DNA of 64,000 bases from an uncultured bacterium (GCA_965372795.1 CBDVDR010000003.1:128495-192494), one strand, 5' to 3'. Numbered from the stretch's first letter, positions 10,942 to 17,418 are shown. The notes: generated by a model from the letters alone, not told the origin. Translations and numbers: made by a program.

Positions 10942-11385
10942 TTATGATTCATCCTCTGTGATTGCATTATAAAATTTTAGTTTAAGCTCTTCATTATCCA
11001 TGTCATCATTTATGACAGCACAGATAATCTCATGCAAGAAATCTTTCTCAATTTTCCCAGCGGCAACATGATAACTTACATTTTCCATCTCCTGAATAAA
11101 TCTTCCTGCAACAAACACATATCCATTGTAAATGAGAAATTGTGCACCAAGAGCTATAGCAATTCGCTTATTACCATCTTGGAAACAATGAAAATTACAT
11201 GCAGAAAAAAACAAGTGCGTTAGTTTTTCTTCAAATGTCAAATAATATTCATCATTTTGTATATGTTGTAATGCACTCTGCAGAGCGCCAGTATCAATAA
11301 TACCAAGGGTCCCTCCGCCACTAACTTTAACAGTTGTTTTATGAATATCAATTGCTTGTTCAAGCGTGAGATAGACGAATGTCAC
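10942..11385 (-). CDS. doc: Doc (death-on-curing) type Fic-fold toxin
   Basis: 147 aa. The catalytic motif HCFQDGNKRIA matches the Doc variant HxFxDGNKR of the Fic motif. N-terminus LTLEQAIDIHKTTVKVSGGG...IDTGALQSAL is typical of Doc family toxins. The GTG start shares one nucleotide with the TAG stop of the upstream gene. Confidence 0.85.
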   Translation of the reverse strand: MTFVYLTLEQAIDIHKTTVKVSGGGTLGIIDTGALQSALQHIQNDEYYLTFEEKLTHLFFSACNFHCFQDGNKRIAIALGAQFLIYNGYVFVAGRFIQEMENVSYHVAAGKIEKDFLHEIICAVINDDMDNEELKLKFYNAITEDES

Positions 11386-12416
11386 TATTCACGCTCCTTG
11401 AGACGCTTGAATACTTCCTTAGATTCCTCAAGTCGATCAATGAGTTCCTTGCTCTTTTCACCAAGAAAACGCTCAAAATCAGCTGAGTCTAATGGAGTGA
11501 CATAGTCTTTTAATTGTAAGTGTAAAGCATCACGGAAAGCAAGATCACGGCTCGCCATCTTGGAGCGAGCCTTTTCAACAAGTGGTTGCCAGAGTGATTG
11601 GGTCTCAAACTCATCAAAAAGCTTATCTACTTCCCATGAAGTTAGTTTACGTTTTACTCTCTTGAATGCTTCTTCTATAACTTTTGCAAAACCAAATTCA
11701 TAAGACGAAATTAAATCCAATATCTCTGAATAGAAAGTATCCCTTACATTGTCTTTTTCTTTAAGTTTGAGAATCTTTCTATATTCCTTTGCATCTTCCT
11801 TAAAAATGCTAACATATATTTTATTTGTATAAGCGGGATATTTGAAATTACCCATATCAACATAGTCTCTCAAGGCGTCGGTAAATTCTTTGCGATAATT
11901 TTCTTCCTTGAAGTATGAGATGATAAAATCTTCATCTCGCTGATTGATATACTTAGTGCCACCACCTGTTTTTTTATTTTGTGTATCAATTACAATATCA
12001 AGGATTGCTTGGCGTAGTAGCCTTGCTCGCTCACTCTCTGTAATAAGCATGGCAAGGTTGAGAAAAGCCTTAAAGTCAAAGATCCCAAGAGCATTTATAG
12101 TGTGCAATTTTTTGCCTACGAAATCAGTTTCGTCATCATATTGTTCTTTGACTGCTAATTTGTAGTTCTGTAAGGACTTACCTCGTAAAACCTCGTAACC
12201 ATTTTGCTTTAATTCAGTTTCATACTTTGAGAGATAATTATCAATTGTTCTCGAAGTAACTCCAAAGAACTCAGCAACTTGCTCCTTAACAAGAGTTAAT
12301 TTTCCTTGATATGCAACTCCTTGCAGGTTAGTAGCTTTCTTAATTTCATCAATTGCATAAGGATTATTTAGAATATTCTGGCGATCGATATCTGAATTGG
12401 TTAAATCTTTACTCAT
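11385..12416 (-). CDS. 343-aa helix-turn-helix protein of unrecognised family; putative partner or antitoxin of Doc
   Basis: Intact ORF translationally coupled to doc. The N-terminal segment LVKEQVAEFFGVTSRTIDNYLSKY reads as an HTH. The rest is helical and charged, and I recognise no catalytic motif. It is reminiscent of the RhuM/Bro/KilA-type DNA-binding genes seen next to Fic/Doc genes inside R-M loci, but I cannot assign the family by eye. Confidence 0.6.
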   Translation of the reverse strand: MSKDLTNSDIDRQNILNNPYAIDEIKKATNLQGVAYQGKLTLVKEQVAEFFGVTSRTIDNYLSKYETELKQNGYEVLRGKSLQNYKLAVKEQYDDETDFVGKKLHTINALGIFDFKAFLNLAMLITESERARLLRQAILDIVIDTQNKKTGGGTKYINQRDEDFIISYFKEENYRKEFTDALRDYVDMGNFKYPAYTNKIYVSIFKEDAKEYRKILKLKEKDNVRDTFYSEILDLISSYEFGFAKVIEEAFKRVKRKLTSWEVDKLFDEFETQSLWQPLVEKARSKMASRDLAFRDALHLQLKDYVTPLDSADFERFLGEKSKELIDRLEESKEVFKRLKERE

Positions 12417-12417
12417 T

Positions 12418-12624
12418 TCAATCTTCCTTTATAGTCCGAAACACGATTTGTTCAGACTTCTCGCGACCTTGATTACGTGTCGCGAAAGTCTGAACAGCGT
12501 AGGCTTTAAGTTGATCATTTCCTTGAAACCATTGGTCAAGGCATATAAACTGTATTGGCTCTGCTTCTGCTATAGCGTCAATCAGCTCTTTTGTCACTTC
12601 ATCTTCAAGGCAGATAAGGAGCAT
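12418..12624 (-). pseudogene. C-terminal stub of an N6-adenine (Mod/type IIG-like) DNA methyltransferase
   Basis: The 68-aa ORF ends ...IQFICLDQWFQGNDQLKAYAVQTFATRN...IVFRTI. This resembles the conserved tail (xxLDxxFxGNDQLKxNxxxx...FRTI) I associate with Mod-type methylases. There is no catalytic domain upstream. An in-frame TGA lies 5 codons before the Met, and only AT-rich non-coding DNA follows to 12872. Its stop is 1 nt from the start of the 343-aa gene. Confidence 0.45.
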
Positions 12625-12835
12625 GCCCTTTGCTCTGTTTCAGCGATTTCTTTTAAGTAATTATAAATCATAATATTTCAAAAATAAAGTTTCAAAACTT
12701 AAAAACATAATCAACAAATTTAAATTAAATAAGAGACTCTTATCGATTATATGTTTAGAAACGGTCCCCAACCTATCTGTCAGTAATCATAACATAATAT
12801 GTCTTGTTTAAGCATTGTTATTGCATTCAATATAA

Positions 12836-12864
12836 TTGACAAAACAGTATCAATTTTATATATA
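12836..12864 (+). promoter_or_regulatory. Sigma70-like promoter (TTGACA-17 nt-TATATA) placed so the transcript would be leaderless or nearly so
   Basis: TTGACA at 12836-12841, 17-nt spacer, TATATA at 12859-12864. The ATG of the next CDS is at 12873, and there is no Shine-Dalgarno in between. Confidence 0.4.
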
Positions 12865-12872
12865 TCGTCTAT

Positions 12873-14015
12873 ATGAAAAACAACCGGGCAATACATTTTT
12901 TATTAATCACATTAGTCTCTGTACTATTATTATCTGGGATAGTATTCAGTTCCGACTCTGTCGAAACAGCCGATACTACTTCAGAATATCGTTGTGACAA
13001 ACATTCCAACGACAGCACAGTTCAAGTAACCAACAGATCCGGTGAAGAACCAATCCATGTTGGAGAAACTGACGAAATTGTGCACGACCACGAAATAGTC
13101 GCTTTCGAAACAGAGGTTCCACCTCCGCCACCAACAGTAATGGATTTTCTTTCATCCGGAAAATATCTGGCATTCTTAATTCTATCAGTTGTGGCTCTTG
13201 GTCTGTTACTAAGCAACAAAGTCAATTACTGGATTCGGTTAGGTATTATATTTGTCGCCTTTGTTCTATTTGGATTAGATTATTTCTACCCCCTGCATCC
13301 CAGCCCGATGTGTGCCATTACCAAACTGTTCATGTTCAAATTTACGTGGGGAGAATTTTTCCCGGCGTTTATTGCTATGTTCGTTGCGATTTTCCTGCCA
13401 AGTTTAATCGGTCGCAAACTTTTCTGCGGCTGGGTTTGTCCGCTGGGAGTGATGCAGGATTTGATAAACAAAATACCGTTTAAATGGCGTATCAAAAATT
13501 TCAATTTTTCACTGTTTAATTCCATTCGTGGCGCTTTGCTGTTGATGTTTGTTCTGGTTTTCTTTGGACTCAAAGATCATTTAGGCTGGCTGGCAACTGA
13601 TATGAATATTGATCCGTCCGAACAGATGTGGGTAGCCTACTCCGCTTATAGTATTTATACCCCGATCAATTTTTTTGAACTGCTCCACTGGGGATTCAAT
13701 CTGACCTTTTTTATCATGTTCCCGATTTTGGTAATTGCCAGTCTGATTTTGTACCGTCCGTTTTGTTATTCAATCTGTCCAATCGGTTTTCTTACCTGGC
13801 TGGTTGAAAAAATTTCTCCCGGAAGAGTTCGTGTCGATCATTCCAAATGTAACAATTGCGGAATCTGTTATGATAAATCACCGTGCCCGACGATTAAACC
13901 GATGGTTGAAAAGGCTTCGGTTCTGCCGGATTGCACTTCGTGCGGCGAATGTTTATCGACCTGTCCCACAAATGCAATTAAGTTTGGTTTTACACCGATT
14001 AAATCAGACAACTAA
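12873..14015 (+). CDS. NapH/MauN/NosR-like membrane-bound polyferredoxin (multi-TM, two CX3CP motifs, two C-terminal 4Fe-4S motifs)
   Basis: 380 aa. Signal or anchor, then a His/Asp/Glu-rich segment ([13 protein letters not shown]) and a PPPPP linker. Several TM helices follow, with CGWVCPLG and CYSICPIG (CX3CP). The C-terminus has [14 protein letters not shown] and [12 protein letters not shown] ferredoxin motifs. Confidence 0.7.
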
Positions 14016-14099
14016 GATATTATTCTTTTTTAAACTTTGATCGCAAAAATACGTCATTAATATTAGATATCTTAACAGAAATTTAATTTAGTTATTATT

Positions 14100-15269
14100 A
14101 TGAACTTTAAGAAAAAGCCCTTTCAATTTTCTGCTATAGTTGGACAGGAAAAAATAAAAACTGCCTACTTAGCAAATATTGTTAATCCTAATATTGGCGG
14201 CTTGCTAATTAGTGGTCCCAAAGGAACCGGTAAAAGTACTATTGTTCACTCGGTTGATTCAATTCTTCCAAAATACAATGCTGTCGATGGGTGCGATTTT
14301 AATTGTGATCCTGACGCTCCTCAAAAATTCTGTTCCAATTGTAATGAATTATCAGAAATTTTACCTATTAATAAGAAAATGCGAATTGTCAATCTACCCC
14401 TGAGTTGCACCGAAGATCGTCTGTTGGGCTGTGTTGATATTGAAACTCTTCTGAAAACAGGCACAAAAAAAATCCAGGTAGGAATTCTCGGTGAAGCAAA
14501 CCGAAATATTCTATATGTTGATGAAGTAAACTTACTTCCAGATCACTTAGTAGATGACATCCTTGATGCTGCTGCTTCTCCATGGAATACTATCGAGCGG
14601 GATGGAATCTCTATTACCCATCCTGCCGAGTTTATTTTAATAGGCACAATGAATCCCGAAGAAGGGGAATTGCGACCGCAAATACTTGACCGGTTCGCAC
14701 TTTGTATAAAAGCTGAATCGATTCATGATCCTGCTCAAAGAGTTGAGATTGTCAAACGCACGCTTATGTATGAAAACAATCCTGATAAATTTATACGCAA
14801 CTTTGAAAATGAAGAAGCAACTCTGAAAACTGTTATATCAAAGGCACGTAAAATTTTAAATAAAGTTATGATTGATGAGGAGTTTTTGATTGTCGTTGCC
14901 GAAGCTAATGCAAAATTAAAAGTTGATGGACAACGGCCGGATATTGTGATTGTTAAAACAGCTCAAACAATTGCTGCCCTTGATGAACGAACCATAGTTG
15001 ATGAAAAAGATGTTTTATTGTCGGCAGAGTTAGCTCTGTCACATCGCACCCGTGATGGCGGGCTGCTGGAACCTCCGACACCGGATGAAATCATAGAAGC
15101 CTTTTCACCATCTCTAAAAAAAAGAAATATCAAATCTGAGAGTTCAAAGAAAAAATTTGTAAATACTTCCGGAAGCCTTGACAAAGATGTTGATAAGTTT
15201 ATTGACAGGGAAAACTTAACCAGTTCTGAAAAAAGTGCCGACGACTCAGAAACCGAAAAAAAAAAGTAA
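14100..15269 (+). CDS. ChlI/BchI-type AAA+ chelatase ATPase subunit
   Basis: 389 aa. FQFSAIVGQEKIKTAYLANIVNPNIGGLLISGPKGTGKST (Walker A), ILYVDEVNLLPDHLVD (Walker B), ERDGISITHPAEFILIGTMNPEEGELRPQILDRF (sensor/Arg finger region). It is collinear with BchI/ChlI as I remember it. It ends in a Ser/Lys/Glu-rich tail and the codons GAA AAA AAA AAG TAA. Confidence 0.85.
   Translation: MNFKKKPFQFSAIVGQEKIKTAYLANIVNPNIGGLLISGPKGTGKSTIVHSVDSILPKYNAVDGCDFNCDPDAPQKFCSNCNELSEILPINKKMRIVNLPLSCTEDRLLGCVDIETLLKTGTKKIQVGILGEANRNILYVDEVNLLPDHLVDDILDAAASPWNTIERDGISITHPAEFILIGTMNPEEGELRPQILDRFALCIKAESIHDPAQRVEIVKRTLMYENNPDKFIRNFENEEATLKTVISKARKILNKVMIDEEFLIVVAEANAKLKVDGQRPDIVIVKTAQTIAALDERTIVDEKDVLLSAELALSHRTRDGGLLEPPTPDEIIEAFSPSLKKRNIKSESSKKKFVNTSGSLDKDVDKFIDRENLTSSEKSADDSETEKKK
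15260..15266 (+). promoter_or_regulatory. Candidate -1 ribosomal frameshift (or transcriptional slippage) site A_AAA_AAG within an A10 run, immediately 5' of the ChlI stop codon
   Basis: In the zero frame the codons are ...GAA AAA AAA AAG TAA. A_AAA_AAG (15260-15266) is the same heptamer as the E. coli dnaX -1 frameshift site. The -1 frame is open from 15230 and continues without a stop into the VWA ORF through 16333. Confidence 0.5.
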
Positions 15270-15415
15270 AAGAAAATTATTCCCCGACAGCAAATGATAT
15301 TCGTACTGAAGAAATTAATTATTCCACAAAATCAAAAAACAGTAAATTTGATTCAATTAAACAATCAAGTAGATCAAAACTAAATATCCCACAATCATCA
15401 ATATCTGATAAAAGA

Positions 15416-16333
15416 TTGTTTCCAACTCTTGATGATTTTTATAAAAAGACAAGAACTTCATTATATAATCTGCTCAAGCAATTACGACGTTCAAATGTTA
15501 GATCAGCTCGGGGGAGCCGGAAACGTAGTCCGGTTGTCTCGTTAAATACCGGAAGGAATATCAGAACAATTAAATATAATAAAGGGAAAAACAGTTTGGC
15601 TCCGGTACCGACTATTGTAAAATCAATTTTGAACAACGGCTATAATATATCAAACAAGCGACTAAAAATTACAGATAATGATCTTGTCGGATGGCACCGA
15701 ACCGAATATGAAAGCCTGACTTTGGTATTGCTTGTCGATGTAAGTAAATCCACCTGGCCGTTTATTGAAGTATTCAAAGAGATACTGCAATCATTAACCG
15801 CGTATTTTGTGCGACATAATGATCGGGTTGGGATGATTTCACTGCAAGGTCTGCAGGCGCGCATCTTTAATCATCCAACTCACAATGTCAGAGTAGTAGC
15901 GCGGGGGCTGGGGAAATTAAAATTTCACGGTGAAACGCCGCTTGCTGATGGTTTACAAAAGTCATTGAATATGGCGAAAATTGAAAGAACTAAAAACCCC
16001 GGTTCAAAATGTTTGGTTATTTTGCTAAGTGATTGTTATCCCGAACCGGTTGCCCGGGGATGTGATAATCTTTTTGAGGATCCAGCTTATAAAGAATCAC
16101 TCAATTCTGCTTCAATATATAAAAAAGAGGATGTTACCTTATTAGTCATCAATCCTATGTTTGAAACTGAGGATGCTAAATTACCGGGAGAAGTTCTAGC
16201 TGAAAAAATTGTAAAAGCAAGCGGCGGGAAATTGATTAAACTTATCCGCCCGCATAACCGAAGACACCTTCGCCCCACCCGTGATGAGATGGATAAAATT
16301 CTTCGAGGTATAGAAACTTCGATGAAACACTAA
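15416..16333 (+). CDS. von Willebrand factor A (VWA) domain protein, ChlD/BchD C-terminal-like; probably the 3' part of a frameshifted ChlD-like gene
   Basis: The track ORF starts at a TTG with no Shine-Dalgarno, but the frame is open from 15230. MIDAS motif DVSKST (DxSxS) sits in LVLLVDVSKSTW. GETPLADGL and VILLSDC are typical of the VWA fold of chelatase D subunits. Confidence 0.8.
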   Translation: MFPTLDDFYKKTRTSLYNLLKQLRRSNVRSARGSRKRSPVVSLNTGRNIRTIKYNKGKNSLAPVPTIVKSILNNGYNISNKRLKITDNDLVGWHRTEYESLTLVLLVDVSKSTWPFIEVFKEILQSLTAYFVRHNDRVGMISLQGLQARIFNHPTHNVRVVARGLGKLKFHGETPLADGLQKSLNMAKIERTKNPGSKCLVILLSDCYPEPVARGCDNLFEDPAYKESLNSASIYKKEDVTLLVINPMFETEDAKLPGEVLAEKIVKASGGKLIKLIRPHNRRHLRPTRDEMDKILRGIETSMKH

Positions 16334-16404
16334 TTACATTTTGTGAAGTGTGTCGATACCAAATCATAAGCATCAACTATTACTATAGATAGAAAGAACT
16401 ATTA

Positions 16405-17418
16405 TCAAAAATCGTTTTGCAATACGATTCTATATCTGGCTTTACCGGCTCTCAGATGATCAATGGCATCATTGACCTTTGACATCGGAAATAGTTCGGT
16501 CTGAGTATTTATATTGTGAAGCTTACAGAAATTTAGCATTTCCATCGTTGTTACCGGACTTCCCAACGGCGACCCCGAAATTGAACGTTGACCGCCAATT
16601 AGTGAAAAGGCTGGAATACAAACCGGTTCAAGAACGGCACCGACAAAATGAAGCCTGCCTTTCGGCTTAAGAGCATTCAAATACAAATTCCAATTCATTG
16701 TAACATTCACCGTCACCAAAAGAAAATCCAGTGATCCGGCGATATTTTCCAAAGCCTGTTCATTACGAGATTCAATAATTTCATCGGCTCCGAATTTTTG
16801 AGCCTCTTCGGTTTTACTTAATGATGAGGTAAAGGCTGTAACATGACAACCCCATTTATTCAAAAACTGAATTGCCAGATGTCCGAGCCCTCCGATTCCA
16901 ACCACGCCGACTTTATGAGTAGGTTTTACTCCAAATTGAATGATCGGATTAAAAACAGTAATTCCTCCGCAGAACAGAGGTCCGGCATTTTCAAGGCTTA
17001 ATTCATCGGGAAGCGGAATCGCCCAGCTCCAGTGACAGCGAATTTTATCTGCAAATCCGCCGTGACGACCGATGATTGTTTGTTCATTATTACTGCAAAG
17101 GTTGTGATCACCAACAAGACAGGATTCGCATTTCATACAGCTTTTTGAAAACCAGCCCAGCCCAACCATTTGACCTAACAGTAAATTGTCAACCCGTTTA
17201 CCTTTGGCAATTATTTCACCGACAACTTCATGTCCGGGAACAAGCGGGTATTGTGACACCTGCCAGGCGTTATCTATAATAGAAAGATCGCTATGACAAA
17301 TCCCGCAATAATAAATCTTTAGCTCTACTTCTTCATCACCAAGCTGTCCGGGATCATACTCAAACGGTTCTAATTTACTGCCTTCACTTAAAACGGCATA
17401 GGCTTTGATAGTATTCAT
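16405..17418 (-). CDS. Zinc-dependent NAD(P) alcohol dehydrogenase (cinnamyl-ADH/YahK-like MDR family)
   Basis: 337 aa. CGICHSD, GHEVVGEI, the structural-zinc Cys cluster CxxCxxCxxxxxxxC (CMKCESCLVGDHNLC) and the Rossmann motif GVVGIGGLGH. Confidence 0.85.
   Translation of the reverse strand: MNTIKAYAVLSEGSKLEPFEYDPGQLGDEEVELKIYYCGICHSDLSIIDNAWQVSQYPLVPGHEVVGEIIAKGKRVDNLLLGQMVGLGWFSKSCMKCESCLVGDHNLCSNNEQTIIGRHGGFADKIRCHWSWAIPLPDELSLENAGPLFCGGITVFNPIIQFGVKPTHKVGVVGIGGLGHLAIQFLNKWGCHVTAFTSSLSKTEEAQKFGADEIIESRNEQALENIAGSLDFLLVTVNVTMNWNLYLNALKPKGRLHFVGAVLEPVCIPAFSLIGGQRSISGSPLGSPVTTMEMLNFCKLHNINTQTELFPMSKVNDAIDHLRAGKARYRIVLQNDF

Follow-up and report, generated by a model that had tools for sequence, protein, structure and literature searches.

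The ATP-driven motors of Mg-chelatase and cobaltochelatase (BchI/ChlI with BchD/ChlD, and CobS/CobT) are built from homologous AAA+ subunits, the medium subunit consisting of an AAA+ module, a linker, and an integrin-I/VWA domain with a metal ion-dependent adhesion site (MIDAS). From bacteria and archaea, 23 Mg-chelatase genes that share a -1 frameshift at a poly-A run have been described as one cluster; each had been entered in annotations as a pair of neighbouring genes of ~1000 nucleotides (nt), and reporters in Escherichia coli gave frameshifting of 63% with A11, 40% with A9, and 10% with A7 (Antonov et al., 2013, PMC3711429). This gene type, fs-chlD, is called widespread in a later paper (Kuznetsov, Milenkin & Antonov, 2022, PMC9227772, citing Antonov 2020), and it supplies both motor subunits alongside cobN, as in Pseudomonas or Burkholderia (PMC9227772). 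The same paper names genomes that carry fs-chlD without a large subunit or B12 or chlorophyll pathways (Spirochaeta thermophila, Brevefilum fermentans) and mentions an additional separate chlI in several Anaerolineae that have fs-chlD and no large subunit; there, the authors state that the function of a ChlI and ChlD complex without the large subunit is unstudied and unknown. Here, we describe a locus of this type in a 64,000-nt stretch of DNA from an uncultured bacterium (GCA_965372795.1 CBDVDR010000003.1:128495-192494), hereafter the window, in which positions are counted from the first letter. Judged from comparative sequence evidence, the two adjacent open reading frames (ORFs) ORF2 (ChlI-like) and ORF3 (VWA) very probably constitute a single recoded gene belonging to the published type fs-chlD, to which the upstream gene for a membrane polyferredoxin (ORF1) is unrelated.

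An earlier note on this stretch had proposed a ChlI-like ORF followed by a VWA/MIDAS ORF, and both were verified (Table 1). ORF2 was assigned to the ChlI/BchI type of AAA+ proteins by profile and PDB matches. The model TIGR02442 covered it with 434 bits over model positions 1-365, the BchI-ChlI model (TIGR02030) gave 344 bits, and the structures of ChlI (8osf, E 1e-85) and BchI (1g8p, E 1e-71) were matched; the sole MoxR-related Pfam match of the module was a weak one to bpMoxR (E 0.0014, under its cut-off). ORF3 matched VWA_2 (E 3e-8) and TIGR02442 at model positions 395-640, and the best PDB match of the C-terminal part was the integrin-I domain of BchD (2x31). When the two frames are joined, the predicted trans-frame product of 744 amino acids (aa; ~83 kDa) has the AAA+, linker, and integrin-I/VWA with MIDAS order of a ChlD-like medium subunit, and TIGR02442 runs through it in one stretch, residues 8-715 corresponding to positions 1-640 of 641 (525 bits). 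The BchD-ChlD model scored 261 against a trusted cut-off of 500. The locus thus encodes both an AAA+ small subunit and an AAA+-linker-VWA medium subunit, the latter through the frameshift only. The earlier note had not recognized a redox-active membrane protein coupled to an AAA+/VWA motor as a described system; the AAA+/VWA module itself is that of the published recoded gene.

Between the Walker motifs, ORF2 contains an insert with four cysteines that is invariant in close homologues; of 84 relatives sampled across all classes, the CobN-linked ones included, 78 possess it. It may constitute a site for Zn or Fe-S that is characteristic of the TIGR02442-type branch. To our knowledge, BchI and ChlI lack this insert, and the window protein also differs from the BchI/ChlI equivalogs in scoring under their cut-offs. 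The C-terminal tail of ORF2 is acidic, unconserved, and ends in KKK-stop.

The recoding site lies at this tail. The 3' end of ORF2 reads ...GAA ACC GAA AAA AAA AAG TAA, so that the dnaX-type heptamer A_AAA_AAG stands in phase with the zero frame. ORF3 is read in the -1 frame with respect to ORF2, and this frame is open from 15230 through the A10 run and the TAA, an overlap of 40 nt; a -1 shift, or one added A in the mRNA, would give ...ETEKKK-VKENYSPTAND... and lead onward into the VWA domain. No start-like codon was found in the -1 frame over 15230-15416, and 50 stop-free codons separate the site from the first such codon. The A10 run is the sole A10/T10 run of the 64 kb, where dinucleotide-preserving shuffles of the window lead one to expect 5.1 +/- 3.4; it thus seems that such long runs are avoided in the rest of the window and retained at the recoding site only. 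The locus resembles fs-chlD, in which a ChlI-like zero frame is followed by a VWA ORF at -1 overlapping its end, the slippery site is a run of 7-11 As, and the parts are called as two adjacent genes. It departs from the published description in that the heptamer is followed immediately by the zero-frame stop, no RNA structure is predicted downstream, and the gene comes from a clade of Zixibacteria-like metagenome-assembled genomes (MAGs) that includes WOR-3, a Bdellovibrionales-labelled MAG, and Gemmatimonadetes.

Table 1. Positions in the window of the recoded gene, its signal and domains, and the upstream neighbour.
Feature	Position	Strand	Remarks
Zero-frame ORF of fs-chlD, ChlI-like AAA+ small subunit (ORF2)	14100-15269	+	389 aa, ~43 kDa
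Walker A, GPKGTGKS	14214-14237	+	in ORF2
Cys4 insert (C65, C69, C78, C81; CxFxC ... Cx2C)	14292-14342	+	between Walker A and Walker B
Walker B, LYVDEVNLL	14511-14537	+	in ORF2
Recoding site	15256-15269	+	A10 run 15256-15265, G 15266, zero-frame stop TAA 15267-15269
Slippery heptamer A_AAA_AAG	15260-15266	+	in phase with zero frame, abutting stop
Predicted trans-frame junction peptide			...SETEKKKVKENYSPTANDIR
-1 frame continuation	15266-16333	+	355 codons and stop: linker, basic segment, VWA domain
Low-complexity linker	15266-15415	+	50 residues, -1 frame
VWA ORF as listed by the ORF finder (ORF3)	15416-16333	+	TTG start, 305 aa; product if initiation were independent
Conserved basic segment RSARGSRKRSPVVSLNTGRNIR	15500-15565	+	-1 frame
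MIDAS residues DVSKS, GETPLADG, LLSDC	15737-15751, 15929-15952, 16022-16036	+	conserved in clade
NapH/MauN/NosR-like membrane polyferredoxin (ORF1)	12873-14015	+	380 aa; neighbour, outside the module

To evaluate the conservation of this arrangement, ~165 non-redundant ChlI-like loci from 80 GTDB genomes, 80 metagenome contigs, and contexts examined individually were classified, with flanks of up to 10 kb per side. The loci listed are mostly 44-55% identical to the window, and the close clade is represented by ~10 of them. In the closest listed relatives with sufficient contig (62-70% identity), a VWA gene comes after the ChlI-like gene, in otherwise unrelated neighbourhoods; the pair is a genuine, conserved module. 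The VWA frame lies at -1 and overlaps the ChlI stop in 38 loci; ChlI and VWA are fused in frame in 49, and in 15 the VWA match falls on an ORF of its own downstream, in most cases a separate chlD. The -1 arrangement was seen in Zixibacteria, WOR-3, the Bdellovibrionales-labelled MAG, Gemmatimonadetes, and many Anaerolineae. After one near-duplicate had been dropped, an in-phase X_XXY_YYZ heptamer within an A7-A11 run was present in 33 of 37 such loci (A7 in 6, A8 in 3, A9 in 15, A10 in 8, and A11 in 1). All six A7 runs occupy the single phase that yields an in-phase heptamer, which argues for ribosomal slippage, at least for short runs. At the protein level, KK at the site, at the end of the otherwise unconserved acidic tail, is invariant in 25 of 25 aligned close homologues and is found among the final 25 residues in 117 of 120 homologue clusters, compared with 8.8% of random 25-residue windows. 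The linker is free of stops in all relatives. In one locus of the window clade (L009 in our numbering of loci), 80 stop-free codons precede the first codon of the -1 frame that resembles a start, and this codon falls within conserved sequence. The starts chosen by gene callers for one and the same sequence are 115 codons apart, giving 230 aa in L007 and 345 aa in L008. These features of the site, the KK, L009, and the gene calls fit one recoded gene, rather than two genes or a sequencing error.

A pair of ordinary genes, in which the VWA protein would start at TTG 15416 (~34 kDa) or be translationally coupled and the A run would encode no more than a Lys-rich tail, is unlikely. Gene callers do annotate two genes in all relatives, the TTG stands exactly where the conserved part of the window VWA frame begins, and the top 120 ORF2 homologues listed are all stand-alone proteins of ~390 aa. 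However, under such an organization the fixed -1 overlap, the in-phase heptamers, and the single productive phase of the A7 runs would be unnecessary, and the stop-free linker, the position of the first start-like codon in L009, and the inconsistent starts speak against it, as do the existence of in-frame fused orthologues and the reporter frameshifting of 10-63% in this family (PMC3711429). The in-frame fused orthologues include the sister clade of the window clade. An extremely improbable alternative is that an error at the homopolymer, in sequencing or assembly, has split a TIGR02442-type gene that is truly fused in frame. Runs of A10 are error-prone and fused relatives exist; however, the ORF is identical in two deposited copies, the homologue clusters end just after KK almost throughout, and a sequencing error is rejected because over 30 independent assemblies, drawn from several phyla, show the same -1 relation at an A run. 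The frame relation, the in-phase slippery site, its conservation, and the colinearity with fused members are direct observations, and expression by recoding is well supported by them as a prediction from sequence.

In the mechanism proposed for this recoded gene, unshifted ribosomes would stop at TAA 15267 and release the ChlI-like AAA+ ATPase of 389 aa. At the A10 run, a fraction would enter the -1 frame, either by slippage of tRNA-Lys on A_AAA_AAG or on transcripts to which RNA polymerase has added one A, and would pass through the linker into the VWA/MIDAS domain to make the 744-aa ChlD-like protein. By homology to BchI/BchD and CobS/CobT, the two products, which, if both are made, have the AAA+ module in common, would assemble into an ATP-driven I/D motor, the subunit ratio of which would be set by the slippage rate. 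By interpolation from the reporter values, an A10 run might give frameshifting in the range of tens of percent. The motor would have as its client either a CobN-type subunit from another part of the genome or something different, as in fs-chlD genomes without a large subunit. The site is comparable to that of dnaX, where the heptamer A_AAA_AAG likewise directs a -1 shift and two products (tau and gamma) have a common AAA+ N-terminus. In contrast to dnaX, where the shift leads to the shorter product, it leads here to the longer one, and neither an upstream Shine-Dalgarno-like element nor a downstream hairpin was detected at the window site. In some species, transcriptional slippage on an A run reportedly does the recoding job in dnaX.

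The earlier note had joined the module to the polyferredoxin encoded upstream and envisaged a redox-coupled system for metal insertion or maturation, possibly acting on the act/cox complexes. The description of ORF1 itself was confirmed: it is a multi-transmembrane, NapH-like polyferredoxin with two CX3CP and two 4Fe-4S motifs (CX2CX2CX3CP), matched by Pfam as two Fer4_5 domains (E 2e-17) and a C-terminal 4Fe-4S ferredoxin. The resemblance to NapH/MauN/NosR lies in the two Fer4_5 CX3CP motifs of the multi-transmembrane core and the two C-terminal 4Fe-4S motifs; unlike NapH and NosR, ORF1 stays under the cut-offs and is a stand-alone conserved gene. The best NCBIfam matches, NapH and the NapH/MauN family, reached 71 bits, and since the cut-off for NapH is 234 (213 for the family), ORF1 is regarded as NapH-like and not as NapH; the NosR model gave 28 bits against a cut-off of 1000, and no nap, mau, or nos genes were found among the window ORFs scanned or listed. 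Alignment with 11 homologues showed an invariant core including YRPFCYxxCPxG and two CX2CX2C...CP motifs, together with an additional invariant motif, PLHPSPMC. The His/Asp/Glu-rich N-terminal stretch, proposed earlier to bind metal, is present; it lies within the first ~85 residues, which are unconserved in this alignment. With ~500 homologues, mainly in MAGs of Zixibacteria and Acidobacteriota, the family appears as a stand-alone, well-conserved single gene.

A functional link between ORF1 and the motor is very unlikely. In its favour, the two genes run in the same direction with a gap of 84 nt (14016-14099), as described earlier, in which no terminator-like site was found, and AAA+/VWA pairs such as NorQ/NorD and CoxD/CoxE are maturation factors of metalloenzymes. 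However, a promoter-like match falls in this gap, the putative metal-binding stretch of ORF1 is unconserved, and the pairing occurs in the window only. No ChlI/VWA gene adjoins the ORF1 homologues in six contexts (L001-L005 and L174; 53-67% identity), no other partner recurs in them, and tblastn with ORF1 found no polyferredoxin homologue in the flanks of the ~165 ChlI-like loci, including the closest ones among those listed (67-70% identity). In L002, the order polyferredoxin ... Wzy_C ... UbiA-ActA-ActB is retained as in the window, with a photolyase in the place of the module. The coupling is not supported: the pairing is not conserved in relatives, the very observation that the earlier note had named as telling against it, and ORF1 is, on this comparative evidence, an unrelated chance neighbour of the motor gene. 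A neighbourhood survey, which that note had recommended, likewise yielded neither co-occurrence of polyferredoxin and ChlI nor a third conserved partner: in an all-against-all clustering of flanking ORFs, performed first on 37 frameshift-type loci and then on all loci, nothing recurred beside the former beyond antisense shadows of the module and lineage-level synteny in Anaerolineae, whereas CobN, ChlD, and Fe/B12-type ABC transporter genes recurred in the non-frameshift classes. Maturation of a respiratory complex finds no contextual support because the module travels without act/cox genes. The suggestion of an NTPase/VWA conflict system was not upheld either, PADLOC giving a generic AAA+ match for the ChlI-like protein (E 6e-6, 23 bits) and none for the VWA protein. 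Directly upstream of ORF1, two overlapping genes on the minus strand (10942-12416), encoding a protein of 343 aa with no Pfam match and a Fic/DOC protein of 147 aa, correspond to a candidate defence pair of PADLOC, PDC-M59A (E 6e-100) and PDC-M59B (E 2.5e-38), which suggests that the region 10.9-18 kb is variable.

Several points weigh against the assignment to one recoded gene with an unrelated neighbour. The trans-frame product is a prediction, and an independent start of the VWA ORF at the TTG is possible. The scores lie under the trusted cut-offs, at 525 against 779 bits for TIGR02442 and 342 against 467 for BchI-ChlI. Stimulatory RNA structures are mentioned in the published description of fs-chlD; they are a usual, not a defining, feature of the family, and none was predicted in the 80 nt downstream of the site in the window and seven relatives (z -0.42 to +1.04). 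The window data fit ribosomal frameshifting and transcriptional slippage alike. In the gap between ORF1 and ORF2, a promoter-like match and no terminator-like site were found, which is compatible with co-transcription of the two genes and equally with its absence.

The absence of a large subunit, the other element of the earlier proposal, was substantiated for the 64 kb. Searches by tblastn with two Pfam-verified CobN queries taken from related loci were negative, and the window contains no ORF of at least 1000 aa. The window therefore differs from Mg-chelatase and cobaltochelatase loci in having no H/N subunit and in deriving both motor subunits from one gene. No cobalamin or chlorophyll genes were detected when most window ORFs of 150 aa or longer were examined with Pfam, and the haem-related genes were those for CtaA and CtaB of the cox block only. 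The rest of the window scanned was housekeeping in nature, comprising alternative complex III, cox genes with SCO1, CtaA, and CtaB, ATP synthase, fatty-acid synthesis, RNase III, electron transfer flavoprotein, and ABC exporters. Neither a cobalamin riboswitch nor any other Rfam family was found in the window at gathering scores, nor, with E values of up to 1 allowed, over 12300-16500; from seven related loci, Rfam returned tRNA-Sec only. A literature search joining Zixibacteria with cobalamin or chelatase found nothing useful.

It is possible, at a tentative level, that the motor serves a CobN-type subunit whose gene lies outside the window, as an ordinary cobaltochelatase of the B12 pathway (cobN with fs-chlD); this is compatible with recoding and competes with the orphan status alone. 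The best-matching family model bears the name 'putative cobaltochelatase', the primary role published for fs-chlD is to provide both subunits for CobN (PMC9227772), and the window encodes an aerobic respiratory chain with alternative complex III, cox, and ATP synthase. Four loci from two phyla, belonging to a Gemmatimonadetes MAG and to three MAGs of Anaerolineae, have genes for B12-dependent mutases immediately upstream of fs-chlD in divergent orientation (L019:5796-9248, L039:8314-10001, L054:6979-8456, and L070:7483-8930, all on the minus strand): an IcmF-like fusion in one locus, and MeaB with a B12-binding subunit in the others. These genes hint weakly at a connection between cobalamin and fs-chlD without CobN. 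On the other side, CobN was found in the flanks of none of the 38 frameshift-type loci, compared with 16 of 49 fused and 8 of 15 split ones. In a neighbour-joining tree of the AAA+ module, the window clade (L007, L009, L010, L012, and L019) stands apart from all CobN-linked clades. Its sister is an archaeal clade of in-frame fused genes that have no CobN in their flanks, and the frameshift genes of Chloroflexi form a second clade. The lack of cobalamin riboswitches and of B12 genes in 64 kb points in the same direction, and genome-wide orphans are documented in the literature (PMC9227772).

For the window, the motor without a large subunit is an observation over 64 kb, and we infer the same for the whole genome. 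We offer as a conjecture, short of a probable one, that the recoded motor of the Zixibacteria/WOR-3-type clade works without CobN or ChlH genome-wide and acts through its MIDAS on a client other than a tetrapyrrole chelatase subunit, with slippage on the A run setting the I:D ratio. Its role may be, for example, that of a MoxR-like remodeller or a metal-insertion chaperone. Pairs of the MoxR type (RavA/ViaA, NorQ/NorD, CoxD/CoxE, and CbbQ/CbbO), in which an AAA+ ATPase works with a MIDAS-bearing VWA partner, act on a client protein and are a possible model for ChlI/ChlD without a large subunit. The window module differs from them in its AAA+ subfamily and in that no conserved client gene adjoins it.

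Further observations were made among the relatives. In L016, L119, L129, and L136, the VWA frame is at +1 where it runs across the ChlI stop, and L123 was grouped with these loci, such relatives overlapping at +1 or at -1 without an A run. A T6-T7 run (e.g., GGTTTTTTC) in the overlap may be a different, lineage-specific recoding signal. His-rich tails of the ChlI-like protein (e.g., HAHSHSHRHK), which recall the tails of metal-delivery GTPases, occur in L023, L026, L027, L030, L140, and L148, and all of these loci except L148 have CobN in their flanks (5/6). An ORF of ~336 aa with no Pfam match, a candidate gene, adjoins seven in-frame fused relatives (~49-54% identity) on the opposite strand (L093:12971-13981, L097:4872-5891, L099:6479-7471, and L103:12858-13877, all minus, and three more).

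The gene in the window is, by its sequence features, a new member of fs-chlD from a Zixibacteria-like lineage, the kind of recoding itself being already published. Its identification corrects the annotation, in that the two called "genes" are one recoded gene, extends the published family to a Zixibacteria-like clade with relatives in the FCB group and other candidate phyla, and removes a tempting false lead, the coupling to a redox membrane protein. The sampled frameshift-type genes are never beside CobN, whereas their in-frame and split relatives often are, which sharpens the question of what the motor does without a large subunit and points out clades in which the ChlI/ChlD motor can be studied in that state. 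If the recoded motor does work without CobN or ChlH genome-wide, the motors of class I chelatases would gain a second, older function.

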